From NCBI GenBank assembly GCA_016840465.1, contig JAEOSH010000018.1, positions 1 to 31,500 of the forward strand: DNA of 31,500 bases, given 5' to 3'. Made by a program: the position numbers and the translations under genes. The DNA comes from Candidatus Baldrarchaeum yapensis. GTDB taxonomy: Archaea > Asgardarchaeota > Baldrarchaeia > Baldrarchaeales > Baldrarchaeaceae. Positions 3,827 to 27,771 of the stretch are shown here, piece after piece; positions within the stretch are counted from its first letter, which is position 1; each line of letters starts with the position of its first letter. The notes below the pieces were generated by a model. The model saw nothing but the letters and a program-made list of their open reading frames with translations, searched no databases and had not been told where the DNA came from.

Positions 3827-4552
3827 ATGATACCGCCTGCTTTTGGTTATGACAGGGCGATTACCATATTCAGCCCCGACGGCCGCCTGTTCCAAGTAGA
3901 GTACGCAATGGAAGCAGTAAAGAAGGGGGCGACGGCCGTCGGAGTCAAGTGTAAGGATGGCGTTGTACTATCCGTGGAAAAGAAACTCCTACCCCTACAA
4001 GAACCGATGAATGTAACAAAGGTGTTCCAGATAGATGAACATGTGGGAGTTGCAATCGCCGGCTTGACCGCTGACGCCAGAATTCTCATACACTACGCAC
4101 GTTTAGAAGCCCAATTAAATAGGCTTAATTATGATGAGCCCATCTCGGTGGAATTGTTGGCAAAAAGAATTGGAGATATAAAGCAGCTTTATACGCAACA
4201 TGCGGGGGTTAGGCCGTTCGGGGTCTCATTACTAATAGCTGGGGTTGATGATAAGGGTCCCCGCCTTTTCATGACGGATCCAAGTGGTACATTCTGGGAA
4301 TTCAAGGCAGTTGCAATGGGGGCGGGGGCACAGGCTGCGATGGAGTTACTTGAAAAAGAATATAGGGACGATTTAAGTTTAGATGATGCCGTTATGCTCG
4401 CGCTTAAAGCTTTACGTAAGGCGATGAATGGCGAAATAGATTCAAAAAAGGTAGAAATGGCAATCGCGTATCGTGAAACCCGGAAGTTTAGGCTTTTATC
4501 ACCCGAAGAGGTTAATCATTACGTTGAAAAATTAAAGGATAGCAAAGGTTGA
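3827..4552 (+). CDS. psmA: 20S proteasome subunit alpha
   Basis: 241 aa; [34 protein letters not shown] is the canonical alpha-subunit N-terminus. Confidence 0.97.
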
Positions 4553-5289
4553 TGGTTATGAGCGCGATTAGAGGAGAAAAATGGGTAATATTAGAAGGGG
4601 CTGCAATTGCTCGTCTTGAGACCAGAGGTATGAGGTTTGAGGTCATAGTAGATCCCGAAAAGGCATGGGATTTAAAAAGAGGAAAAGATATTGATATAAG
4701 GGACGTACTTAAGGGTTACATAATCTTTGAAGATGTGAGGCATGGCAAGAAGGCGCCTGAGAGCAAATTGAAGGAGATATTTGGAACCACAGATCCGTTC
4801 GAGATTTCAAAAATAATAATAACGAAGGGAAGATTACAACTGACGACAGAGCAGAGAAGGCGGATGATAGAAGAAAAGAAGAAGGCTATCATATCGCTAA
4901 TATCAAAGTATTGCATAAATCCCCAAACGGGACTTCCCCACCCTCCGCAAAGGATAGAAAAAGCGCTTGAAGAGGCCAAGGTTGCGATAGACCCATTTAA
5001 GTCTCCAGAGGAGCAGCTAAAGGACATTATAAAGGCGCTAGAACCAATTATTCCGATAAGAATGGAAATAACCACGTTGAAGATTCACGTTCCTGCAATT
5101 TATACCGGAAAAGTGTATAATTTCGTCAGAGCATCAGGTACCATTACGTCTGAGAAGTGGAATCCTGATGGTTCCTGGGAGGCTGTTGTTGAGATACCCG
5201 CTGGCATAAGAACGTCCTTTATTGAAAAACTCAATAATATGACCAAGGGTCAAGCAAGGGCAGAGATCGTAGGGAAGAAGAAAAAGTAG
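4549..5289 (+). CDS. sdo1: SBDS/SDO1 ribosome maturation protein
   Basis: 246 aa; [25 protein letters not shown] and [44 protein letters not shown] are SBDS hallmarks. Overlaps the psmA end. Confidence 0.95.
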
Positions 5290-5298
5290 GTGATATAA

Positions 5299-6006
5299 AT
5301 GCCGATATTTTTCCAGAATAAGGATATTGTTGTCCCCGGGGATTGTATTGCGACAGGCCCAAATTATAAACCCGGGGTTGGAACGTTCAGAGAGGGAGAT
5401 TCCATTTTCGCGGCTGTTATCGGATTGCTCGAGATAAAAAATGATGTTATTAATGTAATTCCGTTAGAGGGGACTTACATACCGCGTCCCAATGATATTG
5501 TTATAGGGAAGGTGATAGACGTAGCGATAGCCAGCTGGAAAGTTGATATCAGAGCGCCGTATGTTGCAACTCTTCCGGCATCTAATGTATTCGATAGACC
5601 AATAGATCCGGTAAGAGAAGATCCACGGAAGTATCTCGATGTGGGAGACACCATACTTGCGAAGATAGTATCCTTCGATAGAACACATGATCCCATCCTG
5701 ACAATAAAGGAGAAGGGACTTGGGAAACTCAAGGGAGGAAGATTGATAATCATGGAGCCTACTAAAGTTCCAAGATTGATAGGGAGAAAAGGATCGATGA
5801 TAAATATGGTAAAAGGAGAGACAAAATGCAAGATCGTGATAGGACAGAACGGTAGGATCTGGATTTCATGTGAGAGGCCGGAGATCGAGGATATTATTGA
5901 GATGATCGTTCGCAGAATAGAGAGGGAAGCTCACACGACGGGACTCACTGACAGAATCCGCGAGTTTATAAAGCAGGAGATGGGAAAAATTCGAAGAGGG
6001 GAGTGA
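5299..6006 (+). CDS. rrp4: Exosome complex RNA-binding protein Rrp4 (S1/KH)
   Basis: 235 aa with S1 and KH domains ([31 protein letters not shown]), upstream of rrp41/rrp42. Confidence 0.95.
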
Positions 6007-6776
6007 TGCGAATGAAAATAGTTCCTAGGATCAAACAGCAACCAGAGAGGTTGATTGATGAGAACGGTCTTCGCGTCGATGGTAGAAGAGTTGACGAATT
6101 AAGGAAGATGAAAATGGAAGTGGGCGTGCTGAAACAGGCAGACGGATCTGCATATCTAGAACAAGGGAAAACAAAGGTCTTTGTCGCAGTATACGGTCCT
6201 CGAGAACTTCACCCACGGCACCTAGCGTTACCTGATAGAGCACTATTAAGGTGCACATACCGTATGGCATCGTTCTCTGTTGAGGAGAGAAAGAGCCCAG
6301 CACCCTCGAGAAGAGAAATTGAGCTGTCAAAGGTAATAAGGCAGGCGCTGGAGCCGGCAGTATTTCTTGAAAGATTTCCAAAAACAGCAATAGACGTGTT
6401 TATAGAAATAATACAGGCAGATGGGGGAACACGATGTGCTAGTATCACTGCAGCATCATTAGCATTAGCAGATGCAGGAATCCCAATGTCAGATTTAGTT
6501 GCGGCGGTCGCTGTTGGGAAGGTAGACGGACATATAGTTCTCGACATAAATGATATTGAAGATAAGTACGGGCAGGGAGATATGCCCGTTGCACTGATGC
6601 CGCGGAAGAAGCAGATAACATTGTTGCAATTAGACGGAAAATGGACTCCGGAGGAGTTCAGGCAGGGACTCGAGTTAGCGATTAGGGGATGTGAGCAGAT
6701 ATATGCCATGCAGAAGACCGCTCTTAGAAAGAGGTATTTAGAGGTTAGAGAAGAGGTGCTGAGGGAAGGAGAATGA
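6003..6776 (+). CDS. rrp41: Exosome complex exonuclease Rrp41 (RNase PH family)
   Basis: 257 aa; [38 protein letters not shown]...[26 protein letters not shown]. Confidence 0.97.
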
Positions 6777-7591
6777 TGCATAAGATGTATAAAATAGTTT
6801 CCGACATCGAAAGGGAGAGCATGAGAACATTGTTAAGCAAAAGACGAAGAATAGACGGAAGAGGGCTCGAAGACTTTAGAAAGATCGAGATAGAGACGGG
6901 AGTTGTTGAAAAGGCGGAAGGTTCAGCAATGGTGAAGCTGGGAGATACGAAGGTTGTTGTTGGTGTGAAGGCAGAGATAGGCGCACCTTTCCCAGATACT
7001 CCAAATAAGGGAGTGCTGACAGTTAATGCCGAGTTTGTTCCAACGGCTTCTCCATTCTTTGAGCCGGGACCTCCTGATGAGGATGCAATAGAGCTTGCAC
7101 GTGTGGTTGATAGAGGATTGAGGGAAAGCGAGGCAATAGATTTAGAGAAGTTGTGTTTAGTTGAGGGAGAGAAGGTCTGGATATTATTTGTGGATCTTTA
7201 CATATTAGATCACTCAGGAAACCTCTTTGATGCGTCAGCGCTTGGGGCAATTGCCGCCCTTCTAACGACAAAAATACCTAAAGTTGAAGTTCAAGAAGAT
7301 GAAATAAAAGTACTAGATGAAGAAGTGCCACTTCCGATGCGTCATATTCCGGTGTCTGTAACCTTTGCAAAGATAGGAGATAGCATAATCGTGGATCCCT
7401 GCATAGAGGAGGAACAAGTAATGGACGCCTGCTTAACAATAACCGTCGATGAGGAGGGGCACTTGGTGTCGATGCAGAAGGGGGGCTCGGGGACCTTTGA
7501 CGTAAACGATATAAATTACATGCTGGAGACGGCATTGAGGAAGGCAAAGGACCTGAGAGAGAAACTTCCTAAAGTGTCATTAGGTGACTAA
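6773..7591 (+). CDS. rrp42: Exosome complex component Rrp42 (RNase PH family)
   Basis: 272 aa; follows rrp41; [43 protein letters not shown]. Confidence 0.96.
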
Positions 7592-7593
7592 AA

Positions 7594-7872
7594 ATGGGAA
7601 GAACGAAGAAAGTTGGGCCTGCTGGTAGGTTTGGAGCAAGATATGGGGTCAGAATCAGGAAGAGAGTTGCAGAAATAGAAATGGTGATGCGGCAGTGGCA
7701 TAAGTGTCCCAGATGCGGTATACGCAGAGTTAAGAGAATAGGAACGGCACTGTGGCGCTGCCGGAAGTGCGGATACACGTTTACAGGAGGAGCATACTTC
7801 CCAATGACCGCGGTTGGGAAGACCGTACGTCAGACTATTGCGACCATACAGCGGAAGGAACAGGAGAGATGA
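7594..7872 (+). CDS. rpl37ae: 50S ribosomal protein L37Ae
   Basis: 92 aa; MGRTKKVGPAGRFGARYGVRIRKRV...CPRCG...WRCRKCGYTFTGGAYFP. Confidence 0.96.
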   Translation: MGRTKKVGPAGRFGARYGVRIRKRVAEIEMVMRQWHKCPRCGIRRVKRIGTALWRCRKCGYTFTGGAYFPMTAVGKTVRQTIATIQRKEQER

Positions 7873-8468
7873 GCATTCTTATAACTACATCACGACGGCC
7901 AACTCGTAGAACGAGATCTCTTTGTAATGACCTTGCCAGGGTCATTCCTGGTGCGGTAAGGATCAATAGGGGGAAATTGAGCCTAGAGGGCGTTGCCCTG
8001 AGAGCTATAGAGTTAGGTGCCGACAGGATAATCTTGGTGAGCGTTTACAAAGGAAACCCGGGTAAAATGCACTTCTTTGAGGTCAGCTCAGAAACCTTCA
8101 AAAGGTTGGGGCCCGACATGTTGTTGGCTGGAGTCAAATTACAGAGAGATCTCGGTATTAGATCTCTTCGAAGGCACAATTCTCTCGGCGTGGTTACAAC
8201 AGGATCGGCAAACAATGAAATAAGAAAACTTGCAGACGCTCTAGGGTATATTTTGAAGTCAGAGGTATATGTTTTAGACTCCATGGAAAGGGCTGCGGAC
8301 TTGAGGGAAGAAAAAGGGTTAGAACTGATTTTAAAGGTGGAGGAGGATAGAAGGTCTCTTGCTGCATTATCCTTCTACTCACTTCTTAATGAAAAGATTG
8401 TGGGCCCGATAATAAGGGTGAAGAAACTGTTCTGGGAGCCAAAGGTGCTTTTAATTGGAGAGACGTGA
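7869..8468 (+). CDS. Brix domain-containing probable ribosome biogenesis protein
   Basis: MSILITTSRRPTRRTRSLCNDLARVIPGAVRINRGKLSLEGVALRAIELGADRIILVSVYKGNPGKM. ATG at 7869 overlaps the L37Ae stop; the upstream extension in the track is out-of-frame L37Ae DNA. Confidence 0.9.
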   Translation: MSILITTSRRPTRRTRSLCNDLARVIPGAVRINRGKLSLEGVALRAIELGADRIILVSVYKGNPGKMHFFEVSSETFKRLGPDMLLAGVKLQRDLGIRSLRRHNSLGVVTTGSANNEIRKLADALGYILKSEVYVLDSMERAADLREEKGLELILKVEEDRRSLAALSFYSLLNEKIVGPIIRVKKLFWEPKVLLIGET

Positions 8469-8730
8469 GGCGGAAGTCGAGATAGTGGTTGAATACGATA
8501 ATGATGACGATGCGAAGATGCTATATTCGGCGCTTTTGCCTGAGACTATGAGTTTACCTACGGAAAGAGAGAGAACCTTCATAACACGCAAGGGGAATAT
8601 TGTGGAGATACGGATAATTGCAATGGATATAACAGCGCTGAGAGCCGCCGTGAACGCATGCTTGAGGTGGGTAAAAATAGCAGAAGATATTAAATTGCTA
8701 TTAGTTAAGAAGGATAGTAGGAGGGATTGA
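8455..8730 (+). CDS. pcc1: KEOPS complex subunit Pcc1
   Basis: 91 aa of Pcc1 size and syntenic position (after Brix, before prefoldin beta); VEYDNDDDAKMLYSALLPE...ALRAAVNACLRWVKIAED. Confidence 0.85.
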   Translation: MERREAEVEIVVEYDNDDDAKMLYSALLPETMSLPTERERTFITRKGNIVEIRIIAMDITALRAAVNACLRWVKIAEDIKLLLVKKDSRRD

Positions 8731-8731
8731 T

Positions 8732-9094
8732 GTGGCCGAGAGGCTGCCTCCACAAATTCAAAACCAGTTGGCACTCCTGCAACAAGCACAGCAGAGGCTC
8801 GATATGCTGACGGCTCGTAAGCTTGAATTAGAGAGGGAATTGAGAGAAACAGAGTTTGCAATTTCCGAGTTAGAGAAAGTAAATGAGGATGCAGTAGTGT
8901 ACAAAATTGTCGGGGGCTTGCTTGTACAGACGGACAGAAATAAACTGCTGGAGGAATTAAAGGAGAGAAAGGACAGTCTCGAAACGCGGCTCAAGCTTCT
9001 CCAACGCCAAGAGGAAAGGGCCCGACAGCAGGTAAACGAATTGAGGGAGAAGTTAAAGCAGTCATTAAGTGAGAGAGGATATCAAGTATCATGA
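8732..9094 (+). CDS. pfdB: Prefoldin subunit beta
   Basis: 120 aa, GTG start; coiled-coil/beta-hairpin pattern PPQIQNQLALLQQAQQRLDML...EDAVVYKIVGGLLVQTDRNKLLEELKERKDSLE. Confidence 0.95.
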   Translation: MAERLPPQIQNQLALLQQAQQRLDMLTARKLELERELRETEFAISELEKVNEDAVVYKIVGGLLVQTDRNKLLEELKERKDSLETRLKLLQRQEERARQQVNELREKLKQSLSERGYQVS

Positions 9095-9429
9095 GAGAGG
9101 AGGAAAAATTTCCAAGGAAAATAAGTCCTGAGGATATAGAGAGAATATGCACATCTGTCGAGAATGCGATTAGAAGGTTCATACTATCGAAGATTCCAGT
9201 GAATTCGATAATAGACTATGATGTCGTTGTCAATATCACCACGGACAATGGCCTCGACGTTGATATAAAGGTGGACGTTGTAACTTCGCCTTTCATCAAG
9301 TGTGATTTAGATGCGGTCATAAGAAAGGCCGTTGAGGTGGGCAGGGAAAAGTTGGAGAAAATGCTGAGGGAGTTAAAGAGTGAGGCCGAAAGTCCTGATA
9401 GATCTTCTGAGAAGGAACGTCAAGGATAA
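9091..9429 (+). CDS. DUF3194-family protein
   Basis: 112 aa; syntenic position after prefoldin beta; ISPEDIERICTSVENAIRRFILSKIPVNSIIDYDVVVNI. Confidence 0.65.
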   Translation: MREEEKFPRKISPEDIERICTSVENAIRRFILSKIPVNSIIDYDVVVNITTDNGLDVDIKVDVVTSPFIKCDLDAVIRKAVEVGREKLEKMLRELKSEAESPDRSSEKERQG

Positions 9430-16332: not shown

Positions 16333-17088
16333 TTGAAGAAGTTGGAGATATACGGTCTCGAAAAAATACCGATTGTTAAAGAGGGCGATAACGTGGCCGA
16401 GTTGATTGTAAAAGCAGCAGAAGAGGAGGGTGTCGGAATAGAGGACGGTGACATAATAGTCATAGCTCAGTCAATAATTTCGAGGGCAGAGGGATCCATT
16501 GTAGATCTTACAAAGATCAAACCTAGTGAATTTGCTAAAATGATTGCGAAGGAAACTGGTAAGGATCCACGCATTGTAGAAGTGATACTGCGGGAGGCCA
16601 AGGAGGTTGTGAGGATGGGACATGGAGTCATCGTGACTCTTACTCATCACGGAATCGTATGTGCAAATAGCGGAGTTGATAAGTCTAACGTGCCTGGGGA
16701 ACATCTGGTAAGCGTACTGCCACGCGATCCCGATAAGTCCGCACAGAAGATTCGAGAGGAGATAAGGAGATTAACCGGCAAGGAAGTTGCAGTAATAATA
16801 AGTGACACCATGGGGCGGCCCCTTAGAGAGGGAGTTATAGGGGTTGCGATCGGAGCAGCCGGCATCTCACCGCTGTGGGATAGGAGAGGAGATAAGGATC
16901 TCTTCGGGTACACCCTCCAAGTAACCGTTGTGGCAATTGCAGATGAGCTCGCATCCGCCGCCGAACTGGTAATGGGCGAGGCCGATGAGGGAATACCAGT
17001 TGTGATTATAAGGGGTTTTAAGTATCCCCGAGGCAATGAGGGGGCGCGGGTATTAAATAGACCTCGTGAGAAAGATCTCTTCTGGTGA
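16333..17088 (+). CDS. cofE: Coenzyme F420-0:L-glutamate ligase
   Basis: 251 aa; GDIIVIAQSIISRAEGSIVDL, IISDTMGRPLREGVIGVAIGAAGI. Confidence 0.95.
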   Translation: MKKLEIYGLEKIPIVKEGDNVAELIVKAAEEEGVGIEDGDIIVIAQSIISRAEGSIVDLTKIKPSEFAKMIAKETGKDPRIVEVILREAKEVVRMGHGVIVTLTHHGIVCANSGVDKSNVPGEHLVSVLPRDPDKSAQKIREEIRRLTGKEVAVIISDTMGRPLREGVIGVAIGAAGISPLWDRRGDKDLFGYTLQVTVVAIADELASAAELVMGEADEGIPVVIIRGFKYPRGNEGARVLNRPREKDLFW

Positions 17089-17092
17089 ACCT

Positions 17093-18025
17093 ATGATCAC
17101 AGTATTATCAGGCGGAACCGGAACCCCGAAACTGCTGAAGGGGCTACTAAGAGTAATTCCGCAGAGAGATCTGACAATCATCGCCAATACGGCCGATGAC
17201 ATTGAGCTTTATGGACTGTACATATCCCCTGATGTTGATACGATAATCTACCTGTTGGCTGGACTCTTGGATGAGGAAAAGTGGTGGGGAATCAGGGGAG
17301 ACACTTTTCACTTTGTTGAGATGATGCGGCGGTACGGCGAGGAGGCGTGGTTTAATCTTGGAGATAGAGATTTGGCAATACATGTCATCAGAACGAGGCT
17401 TCTTAGAAGAGGCTGGAAACTATCAGAGGTGATAAAGAAAATATGCTCCTCTCTGTCGATAGAGGCTACTATTTTACCAATGACGGATGATAGAGTTGAA
17501 ACACGAATAATTACAAGTGATGGGCGAAATATTCACTTTCAGGAGTTTTGGGTCAAGTATCGGGGAAATATATGCATCAAAGATGTCATATTTAGCGGAA
17601 TAGAAAAAGCGAGACCAGCCGATGGCGTAATAGACGCAATAGAATCATCAAAGGGAGTAATTATAGGTCCCAGTAATCCAATTACGAGCATCGGGCCAAT
17701 AGTCTCCATTAAAGGGATAAGAGAGGCTCTTAGGGATAAAAGTCCGGTTATTGCAATTTCTCCAATAGTTGGCAATAAGCCGGTCAGCGGCCCTGCGGCT
17801 CAACTTATGAAAGCTAAGGGCGTAGAGGTATCCTCGTTAGGAGTTGCGGAGTTGTACAGTGACTTCTTGGACATCTTTATAATAGACAAGAGGGATCAGA
17901 ATCTAAAAGATGAAATAGAGGGGTTAGGGATAAAGGTCATAGTTGCCGATACGATTATGGATAATGACGAGAAAAGGATGCGTCTTGCGCTTATAACGCT
18001 GAAGGCAATGGGTGTGGAAATTTGA
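17093..18025 (+). CDS. cofD: 2-phospho-L-lactate transferase
   Basis: MITVLSGGTGTPKLLKGLLRV...NTADDIELYGLYISPDVDTIIYLLAG; immediately downstream of cofE. Confidence 0.95.
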   Translation: MITVLSGGTGTPKLLKGLLRVIPQRDLTIIANTADDIELYGLYISPDVDTIIYLLAGLLDEEKWWGIRGDTFHFVEMMRRYGEEAWFNLGDRDLAIHVIRTRLLRRGWKLSEVIKKICSSLSIEATILPMTDDRVETRIITSDGRNIHFQEFWVKYRGNICIKDVIFSGIEKARPADGVIDAIESSKGVIIGPSNPITSIGPIVSIKGIREALRDKSPVIAISPIVGNKPVSGPAAQLMKAKGVEVSSLGVAELYSDFLDIFIIDKRDQNLKDEIEGLGIKVIVADTIMDNDEKRMRLALITLKAMGVEI

Positions 18026-18834
18026 AGAGGTTGGTATTCAAAAGTCCTGTTTTTCAGTCGGCGATTGCGGGGGTGGCCGATGGGCATTTTTGTTTTAAGG
18101 CTGCAGTGGCGGGAGCCGGACTCGTGACAATTGGTGGTGTTAGTTTAGATGAGGATAGTTTACATGCAACACGTGAGATAATTGCGCGTGGAAGAAAGGA
18201 ATTTTACTTTGAAATTGACGAACGAGAGGAATTCTTGAAGGAAAATATAAGGGTTGCAAAGAAGGGAGGAAGCCCCGTTGCGGTTAATGTGCGCGTTTGC
18301 TCGTTTAAAGGACTTTTAGAGGCAGGGAAAATAGTTGAGGCGTGTGGTGCAGACATATTTGAGTTAAATGCACATTGTAGACAACCTGAAATAACATCGA
18401 GAGGAGGAGGACAAGAGTTACTCAAGAATCCTAATAAGCTCAAAGATTGGCTTTTAGCCATCCGAGAAGAAATACAAATACCCGTATCAGTGAAAATACG
18501 TGCTAATGTCGGAAACACCCTTAAAATAGTAAAGATGCTTTCGGAGATTCCCGTTGATATTATACATATAGATGCTATGGTTCCCGGGGAGCCTCGTGCC
18601 GATCTTCAGCTGTTACGAGAAGTTTGTAAGTCAGTTGACATGTTTGTTATAGGTAATAATTCCGTAACTGACGGCATCTCCGCATATCGGATGCTGAATA
18701 CAGGAGTAAATGCCGTTTCAGTTGCTAGAGCCATTATGGCATCACCTTCTGCCATCAGCAAGATTATTGATGAGTTGAAGCAGATATTAGGGGAGAGGTT
18801 GCGTCCAATTGTGCTACATCCTGATTCCGGTTAA
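18022..18834 (+). CDS. TIM-barrel flavoprotein related to tRNA-dihydrouridine synthase, F420-cluster associated
   Basis: 270 aa; FELNAHCRQPEITSRGGGQELLKNPNKLKDWLLAIREEIQIPVSVKIRAN resembles the Dus catalytic region; overlaps cofD and cofC. Confidence 0.7.
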   Translation: MKRLVFKSPVFQSAIAGVADGHFCFKAAVAGAGLVTIGGVSLDEDSLHATREIIARGRKEFYFEIDEREEFLKENIRVAKKGGSPVAVNVRVCSFKGLLEAGKIVEACGADIFELNAHCRQPEITSRGGGQELLKNPNKLKDWLLAIREEIQIPVSVKIRANVGNTLKIVKMLSEIPVDIIHIDAMVPGEPRADLQLLREVCKSVDMFVIGNNSVTDGISAYRMLNTGVNAVSVARAIMASPSAISKIIDELKQILGERLRPIVLHPDSG

Positions 18835-19543
18835 AAAACTGTCAGAGGCGAAATCCCGATTGTCCCCTGTGCTGGATAAAAACAGCAGGCAAAAGCTATC
18901 GTTATCAATGTTGCTTGATGTATTATCCGTGGCTACGAGAGTTGTCGATCCTGAAAACGTCATAGTTGTTTCATCAGACATTCAAATCTCTGAATTTCTG
19001 AAAAAAATGAATGTTTCTTTCTTTCACGAGAAAGGCCACGGATTGAATAATGCTATTGAAGAAGCCACGCGCGCACTTGGTTCTTCCACAGAAGCGGTCT
19101 TAGTGCTGCCATCTGATATTCCATTCATGAAATTGACCGATTTATTGGAAATTTTAAACTTGGGGGATAATGATTGTGGCAGGAGAGTTGTAATAAGTCC
19201 CAGTAAAAATGGGGGCACGAACGCTCTTCTGAGGCAACCCCCCGATGTTATACCTTCCATATTTGGGAAGCTGAGTTTCATAAAACATGTAAGAACGGCT
19301 AGAACTCTTAAGGTTCCTGTTTTCATCTACGATTCTCGAACAATAAGTTTCGATATCGACACCATTGAAGACCTCATTGTTGCGATGAAAAACGTCGATC
19401 TTCTCGGTTATCATACCAGGAGGTTCATAAAATCACTAAAGAACCGAATTGATCTTGATAGAGTCAAATTGGGAGAGGGATCCTCCTCTTCCTTCGGCCT
19501 CATCCCCTCTGGTGATGATACTTTTCGTTCTTCGATTATTTAA
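18809..19543 (+). CDS. cofC: 2-phospho-L-lactate guanylyltransferase
   Basis: 244 aa; ILIPVKKLSEAKSRLSPVLDKNSRQKLSLSMLLDVL...VLVLPSDIPF. Confidence 0.9.
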   Translation: MCYILIPVKKLSEAKSRLSPVLDKNSRQKLSLSMLLDVLSVATRVVDPENVIVVSSDIQISEFLKKMNVSFFHEKGHGLNNAIEEATRALGSSTEAVLVLPSDIPFMKLTDLLEILNLGDNDCGRRVVISPSKNGGTNALLRQPPDVIPSIFGKLSFIKHVRTARTLKVPVFIYDSRTISFDIDTIEDLIVAMKNVDLLGYHTRRFIKSLKNRIDLDRVKLGEGSSSSFGLIPSGDDTFRSSII

Positions 19544-21586: not shown

Positions 21587-21619
21587 GTTGTTGCGCAAAA
21601 CCTGGATTTTGCGAGAAGG

Positions 21620-22492
21620 GTGAGGCTCATGGAGCAACCATCCATACCATCGGAGTACCGCACGATACTTGAGGACTTCAAGTCGTATTTGGAACTTTTA
21701 GGCAGGACGCCATTGACGATAAAGGAATATCTCATAGATGTGAGGTTGTTTCTGAGCACGCTTAATGGAAAGGGATTACATGAGGTTACGAAGAGAGATA
21801 TCATGTCGTTCCTGTTATACTTGAAGCAGAAAAGAGGAGATAATAATGTCACAATTGCAAGAAAGTTGAGTTCGATAAGGACGTTCTTCAACTTTCTCGT
21901 CGAGAGCGGGTTCCTTGACAGCAACCCGGCAGCGGATGTGAAAAGACCGAAACTCGAGAAGAAGTTACCCGTCGTCCTGACGCCTGATGAGGTCAGGAGA
22001 TTAATAGACGCTGCTGACAATCCGCGTGACAAATTGATCATAAGGATGTTGTACGTTACGGGGTTAAGAGTAAGTGAGCTCGTAAATTTGCGTGTTGAGG
22101 ACATCGACTTTGAAGAGTGTGTCATTATGGTTCGGATGGGTAAGGGGAAAAAGGATCGTGTCGTTTTCATGGACAAGCAGACTGCAAGGATTCTTAAGGA
22201 GTACTTAAGAGAGAATGGGATCGAACGTGGGAGGGTATTTCCAATTTCGGTAAGAACCGTTCAGAGGATGATTCAAAGGGCGCGCATTAAAGCGGGTATT
22301 CAGAAAAAGGTAACACCACATGTTTTGAGGCACAGTTTTGCCACGCATATGTTGGAGCTGGGGGCAAACTTACGTACGATACAAGAATTGCTGGGGCATG
22401 AACAATTGAATACGACACAGATATACACTCATGTTTCGATGCGGCAGGCAAAGATGGAGTACGAGAAGTTTGAGAAAAATTTAAAGATATGA
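21620..22492 (+). CDS. xerA: Tyrosine recombinase XerA/XerC-D family
   Basis: SAM-like N-domain plus catalytic motifs: TGLRVSELVNL (R), HVLRHSFATHMLE (HxxR), LGHEQLNTTQIYTHV (H..Y). Confidence 0.93.
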   Translation: MRLMEQPSIPSEYRTILEDFKSYLELLGRTPLTIKEYLIDVRLFLSTLNGKGLHEVTKRDIMSFLLYLKQKRGDNNVTIARKLSSIRTFFNFLVESGFLDSNPAADVKRPKLEKKLPVVLTPDEVRRLIDAADNPRDKLIIRMLYVTGLRVSELVNLRVEDIDFEECVIMVRMGKGKKDRVVFMDKQTARILKEYLRENGIERGRVFPISVRTVQRMIQRARIKAGIQKKVTPHVLRHSFATHMLELGANLRTIQELLGHEQLNTTQIYTHVSMRQAKMEYEKFEKNLKI

Positions 22493-22520: not shown

Positions 22521-23681
22521 TTACATTCTTCTGAGGACGCATCTGTGCGCGACTTGTGGTCCGGTCTCTTGATATTCCTTCTTTGTGATCCACATCTTCT
22601 GGAATGTTTTGAGACTCGCGAGGATGGATCCACCGACCCATACCGAGAACTGTCTTTCTGGAGGAGCTATTACTTTCACTTCCACATCGTATCCCCTGTT
22701 CTTCAAGGCCTGAGTCAACTCCTTTTGCAGTCTCTCCTTCATTCCTGGGAACATCGTGTTCCCGCCACTAAGAATTACGTTTGACAGAAGTTCCTTTCTA
22801 ATGGTTGTGTCACATGCCAGCACGCTTTCTATTATTACCTCATGGAGTGGCGGAAGTTCTTTTCCGATGCGCATCGGATCAAACATCACCTCAGGAGCTA
22901 GGAACCTTTCGGATCCTAGAACTACTTCACTACCGTCAGGCATCTTATATTTCTTCTCCACAGCCTCACGGAATTTCTCTGCATGTTTCATCTCCTTTTC
23001 GAGATCTAGAGCGACGTAGCATAACTTCTCCTTAATGTCCCGCACAAGTTCCTTTTCCGCGCTGCTGATGAAGGAGTAACCTCTTTCCATAAGAAGAGTT
23101 CTCAAATATTCGGTGACATCACGGCCACCAAGATCAAGCCTTTGGACTGCTGGTTCTATGGCGTATCCCTCGTAAATGGGGACCACATGCGTGACACCAT
23201 CTCCTGAGTCGACCACGACACCAGTAGTTCTTCCAGACGCATAAAGTGATAGGATTGCCTGAACAGAAATCCAGAGCGCAGGCACATTGAACGTTTCAAA
23301 CATTATTTCAGCAAGCTTTTCTCTGTTTTTATCCGGGTTGAGCGGAGCCTCCGTTAATAGGACGGGGTGTTCTGATGGGTTAACACGTAATTCATTGTAG
23401 AAAGTGTAATGCCATATTTTCTCCATAGCGTCCCAGTCCTTTATAACACCGTGTTCTATCGGGTACACTAGGCGTAGAACGCCCTTATAGGCCATTGCCT
23501 CCTGTCCGATGTAATATTCACGCTCATAGTGTTCAACATCAGTCATAACGCTACGATACTTAGGGTATCCTATTACCGTTGGAAAGACGCTACGGGGTCT
23601 ATCTTCCCCGGCGAAACCGTTCTTTGAAAAACCAGTCCCGTTATCTATAACTATTGGCTTATAGGGGGGTAATTCTTCCAT
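22521..23681 (-). CDS. Eukaryote-like actin (Asgard/Lokiactin-type)
   Basis: 386 aa from ATG 23681 (track extension to 23759 is 5' extra); Shine-Dalgarno-like G-rich run GGGGGG upstream. Contains [151 protein letters not shown]. Confidence 0.96.
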
Positions 23682-23744
23682 AAATGACCCCCCGAAGATC
23701 ATTTTTTTGGACAATTTCATCCATAAATGTACGTGCGTTGAACT

Positions 23745-23757
23745 AATAAAATTTAAC
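23745..23757 (-). promoter_or_regulatory. TATA-like element for the actin gene
   Basis: TTAAATTTTATT on the minus strand, roughly 60-70 nt upstream of ATG 23681 in the 167-bp divergent intergenic region. Confidence 0.35.
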
Positions 23758-23848
23758 ATGACTTATTTGCATTGTTGATATAGCCTATAGATATCAGATA
23801 GGTGAGTTTACAAGTCCATTCAAACAATAAGAAATTGTTGCACTGGGG

Positions 23849-24547
23849 ATGTGGTGGTTTTTGAGAGCCCGTGCAAAACTTGTCGAAATAGAACGAATGG
23901 TAGGGGACGTAGAGTCCAGAAAAATCATACTTAGGGCTTTATTAGATGGTCCTAAAAGTGGAGTCGAACTTCGTCTTGCGCTTGCACGTGCATTTAATAA
24001 GTCGGTTGATGAAATCTCGGATGCGATGGTGTATTTCAACCTCCAAGTTCTTGAGAAGGCGGGAATCATAAAGAGGTGGAGGGGACACGAGGACTGGAAG
24101 GTGAAGTATGCGGAAATAGTTCCGGAGAAAATACAACAGATAAGGAGGTTTTTCGGAATAAAAGTTCCGGTCATGTGTTTTGCGGGGCTCTCTGATCCTC
24201 TCTATATTCGTTATCTACGGAAAATATTTAGAGAGCATATGGACGTGGCGTTAGAGTGTTATAAGTTCTTCGCGCCCGCGGGGATGAGGGGGCGTATTGT
24301 GGGAATACCTGAGGGTGTCGAAGTGTACTACTTTGATGAAAACCTTACATTTGAGGAGTTGTATGAAAGAATTCGGGGATTGACCGAGAAGTTCATCAGA
24401 GAGTACGAGATAATGTTTGATTTGAGTGAAGGGCCACGGGAGTTGGCAATTATATTTTGCCGCCTAGCGTTGGAGTTTGACTTAAAAGCGTTTTATGTCG
24501 AGAAATTGGATGAAGAAAGTGGGAGGATTATTTGGATAATCGAATGA
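23849..24547 (+). CDS. HTH transcriptional regulator with a C-terminal CARF-like (Rossmann) domain
   Basis: 232 aa; N-terminal ArsR-like wHTH (RKIILRALLDGPKSGVELRLALARAF...DAMVYFNLQVLEKAGIIKRW). C-terminal FAGLSDPLY...MFDLSEGPRELAIIFCRLALEFDLKAFYV resembles the CARF DxTxGxR/K segment. Confidence 0.6.
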   Translation: MWWFLRARAKLVEIERMVGDVESRKIILRALLDGPKSGVELRLALARAFNKSVDEISDAMVYFNLQVLEKAGIIKRWRGHEDWKVKYAEIVPEKIQQIRRFFGIKVPVMCFAGLSDPLYIRYLRKIFREHMDVALECYKFFAPAGMRGRIVGIPEGVEVYYFDENLTFEELYERIRGLTEKFIREYEIMFDLSEGPRELAIIFCRLALEFDLKAFYVEKLDEESGRIIWIIE

Positions 24548-25952: not shown

Positions 25953-26510
25953 ATGCCATTGATAATATCGATGCGCCCCAAGTTCGCACGGCTGATATTC
26001 TCGGGAGAGAAGAAGTTCGAGTTGCGGCGAAAATTCGCTAGGGTCCCAAGCGGAACGCGGGCCATAATTTATGCTTCGGAGAACGTTAGGGCGTTTGTTG
26101 GCGAGTTTAAAGTAGGGAGGATTTTCAGGCTACGTATAGATGATTTGTGGGAGTTCGTGGGGCCATATGCAAAGGTTTCGTTCAAGGAATTTCTTCGATA
26201 TTTTAAGAGGTGTACGAAGGGTGTCGCAATAGAGATACGCGATCCATTTGAGTATCCGAAGGCCATCCCGCTGGATGCTGTTAGGCTCGAAATTAGAGAT
26301 AATATGTGGGCCCCACCAGTGGATTACGAGGTTCTTCCGGACAATCATCCCATAATTGTCGCGATAGACAATTACCTCTCAGTCATAATGCAGGACAAAA
26401 GCAGTGAGGGGCGGAATAACAGAAGACTGGTAGCGCGGCCTCATCGTCAGCTTGTGGGGGAGAGGGGAGGAGGGCGAGGGAAGAGGAGGGATCCCGCCAG
26501 AACCAGATAA
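25953..26510 (+). CDS. ASCH/PUA-like domain protein with a basic Gly/Arg-rich tail
   Basis: MPLIISMRPKFARLIFSGEKKFELRRKFARVPSGTRAIIYAS ASCH pattern. Tail after ~26400 overlaps the candidate RNA on the other strand. Confidence 0.75.
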   Translation: MPLIISMRPKFARLIFSGEKKFELRRKFARVPSGTRAIIYASENVRAFVGEFKVGRIFRLRIDDLWEFVGPYAKVSFKEFLRYFKRCTKGVAIEIRDPFEYPKAIPLDAVRLEIRDNMWAPPVDYEVLPDNHPIIVAIDNYLSVIMQDKSSEGRNNRRLVARPHRQLVGERGGGRGKRRDPARTR

Positions 26511-26703: not shown

Positions 26704-27288
26704 TTATTTCCGTATTTTTTCGCCTTCGTTTTCGCTTAGAATTGCGCCACATTGTGAACATATTATGGGATTCGAGCGATAAACTGCTCCACATAGCGGA
26801 CATTTGATAGTTTTGAAAGCAATAATTGGTGTTTTTCGCTCCTCCTTCCCTCTTTGTGTTATTTTCCTTACAAGGTAGCACGTAACCGCGGGAAATGAGA
26901 GAATTATCCCCTTAACTGAGAGATTCACCACCATCAAAAAGACAAATATTAATTTTTCTAATGATGACAAACTCTCCCACGTGGTGGAGTAGTGATGGAG
27001 CAGATACAGAATTAGGAAGGCTACGAAAAACATTGAAAGCACTACCACGGGCGTAACATTAAAGTTTTGTTTTCTGAAGGCCGCGGTCAGAGCGCATCCA
27101 ATTGTAAACACGATTATTAGAAATTGAGGATCTTTAAGGAAAACAAATGCCCATGATATCTTGAATAGGATCGATTTTACTCCATTACTCACTTGGAATG
27201 GCGTTTGAATGGACTTGTAGTCGTACATCTGTGCGATGCAGAAAAATAGTAGCGATATCACAATAAATGCAAACGCTAGGGTTTTCAT
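26704..27288 (-). CDS. Multi-pass membrane protein with a C-terminal zinc ribbon
   Basis: 194 aa; several hydrophobic segments then IKCPLCGAVYRSNPIICSQCGAILSENEG. Confidence 0.7.
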   Translation of the reverse strand: MKTLAFAFIVISLLFFCIAQMYDYKSIQTPFQVSNGVKSILFKISWAFVFLKDPQFLIIVFTIGCALTAAFRKQNFNVTPVVVLSMFFVAFLILYLLHHYSTTWESLSSLEKLIFVFLMVVNLSVKGIILSFPAVTCYLVRKITQRGKEERKTPIIAFKTIKCPLCGAVYRSNPIICSQCGAILSENEGEKIRK

Positions 27289-27297
27289 GGCGACTAC

Positions 27298-27771
27298 CTA
27301 CTCTACCGAGCGTGATGCTGCACCGCCGAGTGTTCCTCCAAGAATTGATGCGATCACGTATATGAGGATGTTGTCCATGAGGTCGTAAAGCGTTGAAACG
27401 ATTCCGATGTATCCCGAGGGAGGAACATGTGCCCATATTATTGCGGCACAGATTATCGCTGCAATAATCGGTGAGAGAGAGCCCGCGGAGCATCCTCTGC
27501 TTGTACTTCTTGCAAGCATGCCGCCTACCACGGAACTCGCGTACCATATTATTCCTATGACCAGAGTTGTTTGAAGGTCCTCTCCCTGCAACAATAGGGT
27601 TGCTATTAGCGAGAATATGTAGCCAACATGACCGCTAGGGTTATATCCCGATATCCCATTCCTTAGGCTTACGTGTATGACGTTAGGCTCAAAATGCATT
27701 ATTACTGCTACTGTCACCATCGAAAATAAAATTATTATTGCGGAGATAAGCAGCACACGCAAAATCATCAC
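27298..27771 (-). CDS. Small membrane protein, function unknown
   Basis: 157 aa; about four hydrophobic segments; co-directional with neighbours. Confidence 0.6.
   Translation of the reverse strand: MMILRVLLISAIIILFSMVTVAVIMHFEPNVIHVSLRNGISGYNPSGHVGYIFSLIATLLLQGEDLQTTLVIGIIWYASSVVGGMLARSTSRGCSAGSLSPIIAAIICAAIIWAHVPPSGYIGIVSTLYDLMDNILIYVIASILGGTLGGAASRSVE

Follow-up and report, generated by a model that had tools for sequence, protein, structure and literature searches.

A divergent Lokiactin-type actin gene from an uncultured Baldrarchaeia-labelled Asgard archaeon and its wHTH-CARF-like neighbor

The window, as we call the whole 31,500-nucleotide stretch of DNA analyzed here, has an archaeal gene content from end to end, as judged from Pfam and NCBIfam matches and from searches with the neighboring proteins, and includes a proteasome-exosome superoperon and a cluster of genes for F420 biosynthesis (Table 1). 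In addition, it encodes ECF transporter genes, Cgi121 (KEOPS), an archaetidylinositol-phosphate-synthase-like gene, alanine aminotransferase, and geranylgeranyl reductase. The superoperon is preceded by a CDC48 gene and followed by a DHH/RecJ-like gene. The actin gene that is the subject of this work is located between a gene for a tyrosine recombinase and a divergently transcribed gene for a 228-aa protein. The recombinase passes the equivalog cut-off of the NCBIfam model recomb_XerA_Arch (284.9 bits against 220), and the named members of the family to which the 228-aa protein belongs are all from Asgard archaea, in agreement with the first-pass annotation of this DNA, which had described the neighbors on both sides as archaeal. 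No profilin, gelsolin, ESCRT, or Arp genes were recognized among the ORFs of the window.

Table 1. Coordinates of the features discussed, as positions in the window
Feature	Coordinates	Strand	Remarks
Proteasome-alpha/SBDS/Rrp4/Rrp41/Rrp42/Brix-like/prefoldin-beta/DUF3194 superoperon	3827-9429	+	Intact, classic archaeal
F420 biosynthesis genes CofE, CofD, and CofC and MJ0144-type Dus-like gene	16333-19543	+	Clustered
Archaeal XerA tyrosine recombinase	21620-22492	+	Converges on the 3' end of the actin gene; Pfam Phage_integrase, NCBIfam recomb_XerA_Arch
Actin (Lokiactin-type) CDS	22521-23681	-	386 aa plus stop; Pfam Actin and NCBI identity
Divergent intergenic region between the actin and wHTH-CARF-like genes	23682-23860		179 bp, 34% GC
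Shine-Dalgarno-like GGGGGGT (putative)	23687-23693	-	5 nt upstream of the actin ATG at 23681; read from the sequence
Imperfect palindrome CCTATAGATATCAGATAGG	23784-23802		Centered on the region's only GATATC; candidate operator, weak evidence
228-aa protein, MarR-like winged helix (N-terminal) and CARF-like domain (C-terminal)	23861-24547	+	Divergent from the actin gene
Three small genes without family assignment	26704-27771 and 25953-26510	- and +	Between aminotransferase and geranylgeranyl reductase

In the ORF list and its translation, the actin gene is a single unbroken minus-strand ORF of 386 codons plus a stop, without introns. An alternative, longer in-frame ORF begins at the ATG at position 23759; alignments with homologs, however, begin only at residue 2 of the 386-aa form, the deposited NCBI protein is likewise annotated from the 386-aa start, and the Shine-Dalgarno-like element just ahead of the downstream ATG favors that start over the one at 23759. 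The translated protein was matched by the Pfam Actin profile (PF00022) over residues 8 to 380, corresponding to profile positions 5 to 407 of 410, with a score of 442.5 bits against a cut-off of 27, which amounts to full-length membership in the family; the E value of 1.6e-132 excludes a chance match. The gene had been proposed to encode a full-length eukaryote-like actin, a description that the end-to-end Pfam match and the identity of 57-60% to eukaryotic actins bear out, and the three near-verbatim peptides that had been quoted in its support are all present in the translation. An AF2 model of the actin, computed from a shallow alignment of 20 Asgard sequences, reached a pLDDT of 37 and was discarded; identity to solved actins was used instead.

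A search of all PDB sequences returned as the top match 9wc4, the 'HC1 actin' (582 bits, 64.0% identity), followed by dozens of eukaryotic actins scoring ~520 bits. In a collection of 5.8 billion proteins, the actin was 100% identical to the NCBI protein P0001, titled 'MAG: actin, cytoplasmic 2 [Candidatus Baldrarchaeia archaeon]', and the next unfused relatives shared 66-72% identity with it, those with names coming from Atabey-, Njord-, Jord-, Frey-, and Heimdallarchaeia; eukaryotic actins in this collection reached 57-59%. A scan of GTDB species-representative genomes yielded 46 related loci, every one of them in a MAG, with titles that name Asgard lineages in about 40 cases, 'uncultured archaeon' or 'archaeon' in five, and 'Thermoproteota' in one; the closest of these loci (73-74% identity) belong to Baldrarchaeota MAG_95 and Ca. 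Baldrarchaeum yapensis. Across these searches, identity to actins of Asgard MAGs ranged from 66 to 74%. The genome to which the window belongs was not among the representatives scanned, so that the taxonomy of the host is based on the NCBI label of the identical protein, on its relatives, and on the genes of the window; all are consistent with the Asgard or Asgard-adjacent host that had been suggested for this DNA. The gene is correctly read as an Asgard actin but was already known, its sequence having been deposited and annotated in NCBI. Separately, about 20 very long proteins from outside the window (roughly 600-1,800 aa; P0169, P0181, and P0184 among them) carry an actin domain, C-terminal in most of them, that is ~50% identical to the query; the one that was looked up is an uncharacterized protein of the cloudy catshark, Scyliorhinus torazame.

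Phylogenetic placement was assessed by neighbor joining (NJ; Kimura distances, 300 bootstraps) on a sample consisting of the query, 31 Asgard actins, and nine conventional eukaryotic actins (animals, plants, chytrid, and dinoflagellate), without Arp, crenactin, or MreB outgroups. An exhaustive representative search recovered no canonical Arp1/2/3 or crenactin, yielding mainly eukaryotic actin-like proteins that were fused, truncated, or divergent. The conventional eukaryotic actins were split from the query and the Asgard actins in 100% of the 300 bootstraps; the query was not nested within the crown eukaryotic actins, the position that the first-pass annotation had named, together with read-coverage breaks at the gene borders, as one that would overturn its reading. 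In an earlier tree that included unlabelled long-branch sequences, which were left out of the final one, the bipartition uniting the query with the Asgard actins received 48% bootstrap support. The branch of the query is long: in 24% of the NJ replicates it was sister to the Baldrarchaeota actins, and in 75% it fell outside all other Asgard actins. Among the sampled Asgard actins it diverges most, with a median identity of 70% to the others, compared with 80% among those, and has the lowest identity to eukaryotic actins in this set (58.8%).

Rare sequence changes, namely indels and motifs, appear from the alignment to settle the placement where distances cannot. The query has several motifs confined to Asgard actins and the 2-residue insertion in the D-loop region that is found Asgard-wide, the eukaryotic counterpart in the alignment being RPRHQGVMVGMGQ--KDSY. 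Furthermore, a 3-4 residue insertion (ALKNRGY-D/ALAERGITG) before VEVK is common to the query and the Baldrarchaeota actins, as are the motif GPQV and a second motif, and among the sequences displayed these Baldr-type features occur only in the query and the Baldrarchaeota actins. The nucleotide-binding motifs are intact, including DNGTG, phosphate loops 1 and 2, the Q residue corresponding to Q137, and the adenosine-pocket LSGGNTM, in which the motif SGGTTM carries a single T-to-N change, and the histidine of IEHG is intact as well. Of the 15 residues of the Lokiactin-specific antibody peptide ab2, 14 are found in residues 19-33 of the query, and 11 of the 15 residues of the Lokiactin antibody peptide ab1 match the query (PMC9834061). 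Against this conserved background, seven sites at which the other 40 sequences all agree are altered in the query (K66, W137, P177, V179, L212, T293, and I303, in query numbering), a one-residue insertion is present at position 238, and the C terminus (HRCVLRRM) is longer by 4-5 residues.

Comparison with characterized actins places these features in context. Similar to the Lokiactins of 'Ca. L. ossiferum', the heimActin of LC3 (PMC8410842), and the HC1 actin (9wc4), the query combines a full-length actin fold and ~60% identity to eukaryotic actin with a D-loop region that is longer by two residues, the FQKMW(I/V)TKKEYQE signature, and an Asgard genome. It differs from them in being more divergent (74% identity at best), in the seven private substitutions, and in the longer C terminus. 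The Baldrarchaeota actins (Ca. Baldrarchaeum yapensis Yap30.bin4.67 and MAG_95; L009-L011) share with the query the insertion, the motifs, and a divergent wHTH-CARF-like neighbor; they differ from it in sequence, at the identity given above and with joining in only the minority of NJ bootstraps noted, and in an intergenic region of ~425 bp rather than 179 bp. Conventional eukaryotic actins (beta/gamma cytoplasmic actins and Acanthamoeba actin-1, 4efh, the last 60.7% identical) are 57-61% identical to the query and co-linear with it throughout, with conservation of the phosphate-binding loops, Q137, H73, DSGDGVTH, and SGG(N/T)TM. In contrast to them, the query has the D-loop insertion, a different hydrophobic-plug sequence (eukaryotic FLGMESCGIHET), P in place of H173, a different C terminus, and an intron-less gene set among archaeal genes. 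Crenactin of Thermoproteota and MreB have the actin/HSP70 superfamily fold in common with the query, which scores far below the thresholds of either family.

The gene on the other side of the intergenic region encodes a protein with no Pfam match above cut-off, only weak wHTH matches, and no Pfam or NCBIfam CARF model. Its AF2 model has a pLDDT of 91.9, and Foldseek comparison of this model with the PDB related the C-terminal half to the CARF domains of Cam1, Csm6, Card1, and Can2 (E values of 2e-5 to 1e-3) and the N-terminal half to MarR-type winged-helix regulators. The family is small, comprising 18 clusters of proteins of 220-255 aa in word-indexed searches of the protein collection, and adjoins actin genes, in most cases divergently oriented, in about seven Asgard lineages (L009-L011, L016-L019, L029, L045, L048, L050, L055, L056, and L059). 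In particular, divergent arrangements were found at three Baldrarchaeota loci (48-50% identity to the protein encoded in the window), six Jord/Freyarchaeia loci (40%), a Thorarchaeota locus together with one related locus (25%), and L055 and L059, and a co-directional one at a single Helarchaeota locus. Elsewhere, and away from actin, P0295 is encoded next to ComA/ComB-type genes and P0290 in a TnpB-containing region of small ORFs, one further case stops at a contig edge, and 35 of the 46 actin-anchored loci have no family member near the actin gene. Because the neighbor in the window is so similar to the gene in the same position beside the Baldrarchaeota actins, the loci themselves can be argued to be orthologous.

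Taken together, these observations argue, with a probability of roughly 0.9, for a Lokiactin-type actin of an uncultured Baldrarchaeia-labelled Asgard archaeon that was inherited vertically within Asgard and would, by homology, polymerize. The integrity of the gene, its family membership, its archaeal context, and its position outside the eukaryotic actins are direct observations. The protein has every Lokiactin-defining feature that could be tested, that is, grouping with Asgard actins, the clade signatures and indels, and an Asgard genome, and lacks those of crown eukaryotic actins and of crenactins. Lokiactin is described as conserved in all Asgard classes (PMC9834061), and Baldrarchaeota are among the Asgard lineages with close actin homologs (PMC8410842). 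In 'Ca. L. ossiferum', which has four actin homologs, Lokiactin is the most highly transcribed of them and forms filaments that scaffold the cell (PMC9834061); purified actin of Heimdallarchaeota LC3 forms thin filaments in vitro (PMC8410842); and in HC1, a cultured Hodarchaeales strain, an actin antibody stains filament-like structures that reach into the protrusions, such structures having been seen in strains HC1 and SC1 (bioRxiv 10.1101/2025.02.26.640444). By analogy with these relatives, ATP-dependent polymerization, a cytoskeletal role, and regulation by profilin and gelsolin would be expected for the query as well. The protein would bind and hydrolyze ATP and is predicted to assemble into double-stranded, F-actin-like filaments, which would scaffold the cell body and protrusions, as in 'Ca. 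Lokiarchaeum ossiferum' and the Hodarchaeales strains HC1 and SC1.

The alternative that survives best, while still improbable, is that the gene encodes a divergent paralog with an ARP-like or otherwise altered function, with the main cytoskeletal Lokiactin encoded elsewhere in the genome. In its favor, the branch of the query is longer, and its identity lower, than that of any other Asgard actin sampled, private substitutions occupy sites that do not vary elsewhere, the C terminus is extended, and several actin homologs are frequent in Asgard genomes, as illustrated by the four of 'Ca. L. ossiferum' (PMC9834061) and by the Borrarchaeum MAGs, which have two actin loci each in the GTDB-representative scan. 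However, identities of 59% to conventional actin and 66-74% to Lokiactins lie within the Lokiactin range, the ATP-binding motifs are all conserved, and both the Baldr-specific insertion and the syntenic wHTH-CARF neighbor are common to the query and the Baldrarchaeota actin locus.

Far less plausible is a eukaryotic actin introduced by contamination or chimeric assembly, an idea to which the long near-verbatim stretches in common with eukaryotic actins and the automatic NCBI product name 'actin, cytoplasmic 2' might lend themselves. Separate ENA, NCBI, and Logan records contain at least 16 contigs that encode the exact actin protein, and the same gene junctions on both sides of it recur on contigs of these records; eight loci read from them have the same flanking genes and are 99.96-99.995% identical to the window. 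The first-pass annotation had likewise argued against contamination. Moreover, the GC content of the gene (0.464), its GC3 (0.482), and its codon usage all fall within the range of the window, introns are absent, and the nearest relatives are Asgard rather than eukaryotic, with the bootstrap split described above. Recent horizontal transfer from a eukaryote to the archaeon, for which the ~59% identity to eukaryotic actins could be cited, is just as implausible: identity to animal, plant, chytrid, and dinoflagellate actins is nearly uniform at 57-60%, so that no donor lineage stands out, and the query has the Asgard-specific indels and conserved local synteny with Baldrarchaeota. Thus, the recurring junctions, the matching composition, the tree, and the indels lead us to reject chimera, contamination, and recent transfer alike. 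Finally, the idea that a prokaryotic protein of the actin fold, such as a crenactin or MreB, was mistaken for actin can be dismissed, given scores of 73.9 bits against a cut-off of 630 for NCBIfam crenactin, short of equivalog membership and contrary to the placement among crenactins that had been named as a refutation, and of 12.8 bits against 515 for MreBH, and given that the best 60 PDB matches are the HC1 actin and bona fide actins, all above 518 bits; the weak, sub-threshold NCBIfam matches to crenactin, MamK, BeeR, and salactin arise because the actin fold is common to them.

As a Lokiactin-type actin, the query is distinguished solely by its above-average divergence within the Lokiactin clade. 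Asgard actins are central evidence for a dynamic actin cytoskeleton that predates eukaryotes, and the gene described here supplies one more, rather divergent, case from Baldrarchaeia, a group that has been little sampled; it bears out published work without introducing a new principle and could be of use as an additional data point in actin phylogenies and in comparative biochemistry.

The recurrent pairing of actin with a wHTH-CARF-like gene might merit follow-up because, to our knowledge, no account exists of how Asgard archaea control the expression of actin. The literature was searched for HTH or CARF regulators encoded beside actin in these organisms, and no relevant paper, nor any on this pairing, turned up. 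The closest parallel is provided by the Csa3-type CARF-wHTH transcription factors, which, similar to the neighbor of the actin gene, combine a CARF-like Rossmann domain with a winged helix and are encoded beside a palindromic element in the promoter region. Compared with Csa3, the domain order is reversed in the neighbor, with the wHTH preceding the CARF-like domain, and the genomic partner is actin instead of cas genes.

Exactly one GATATC is present in each actin-wHTH intergenic region at 12 of 12 loci from five lineages, against an expectation of ~0.1 per region, and is located, as aligned, 104-226 bp upstream of the actin start. In Baldrarchaeota, GATATC lies inside a 26-bp near-perfect palindrome, CGATATAGATGATATCGTCTATATCG, which at L010 is ~104 bp upstream of actin. 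At several Hod/Heimdall loci whose actin gene is not accompanied by the neighbor, a related element, CGATATCTG, is found 110-136 bp upstream of actin. When motif sharing over the five lineages was compared with mononucleotide shuffles, p was ~0.05 for 9-mers, 0.07 for 12-mers, and 0.14 for 14-mers. A conserved operator is therewith a weakly supported lead, suggested by the intergenic sequences. We put forward, as a hypothesis and not as a result, that the actin and wHTH-CARF-like genes form a regulatory pair: in several Asgard classes, Lokiactin might be coupled to a dedicated wHTH-CARF-like sensor-regulator that would bind the GATATC palindrome ~100-200 bp upstream of the actin start and adjust actin expression in answer to a nucleotide, a scenario that we regard as tentative and, on balance, rather doubtful. 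The candidate ligand of the putative regulator would be a small nucleotide, such as cyclic oligoadenylate. If true, an archaeal actin cytoskeleton would for the first time have a transcriptional control circuit proposed for it, and a CARF domain would be employed outside CRISPR defense.

Two further observations concern variation among the strains represented in these records. The three small genes between the aminotransferase and the geranylgeranyl reductase, which encode proteins of 185 aa (with a weak ASCH-like match), 194 aa (with a C-terminal zinc ribbon), and 157 aa, are kept in all strain variants. Some variants, by contrast with the window, carry a 7.4-kb element inserted just upstream of xerA (L001 12090-19471; L004); this integrative element is therefore polymorphic within the population. 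No tRNA genes are present within the window, indicating that the element does not target tRNA genes. Its cargo consists of a 458-aa tyrosine integrase, a MazE-like antitoxin, a NikA-like protein, a zinc-finger protein, and a 731-aa protein of unknown nature, and it is bounded by 14-bp direct repeats, TCCAGGTTTTG(T/C)GC, the empty site being represented in the window by positions 21593-21606.
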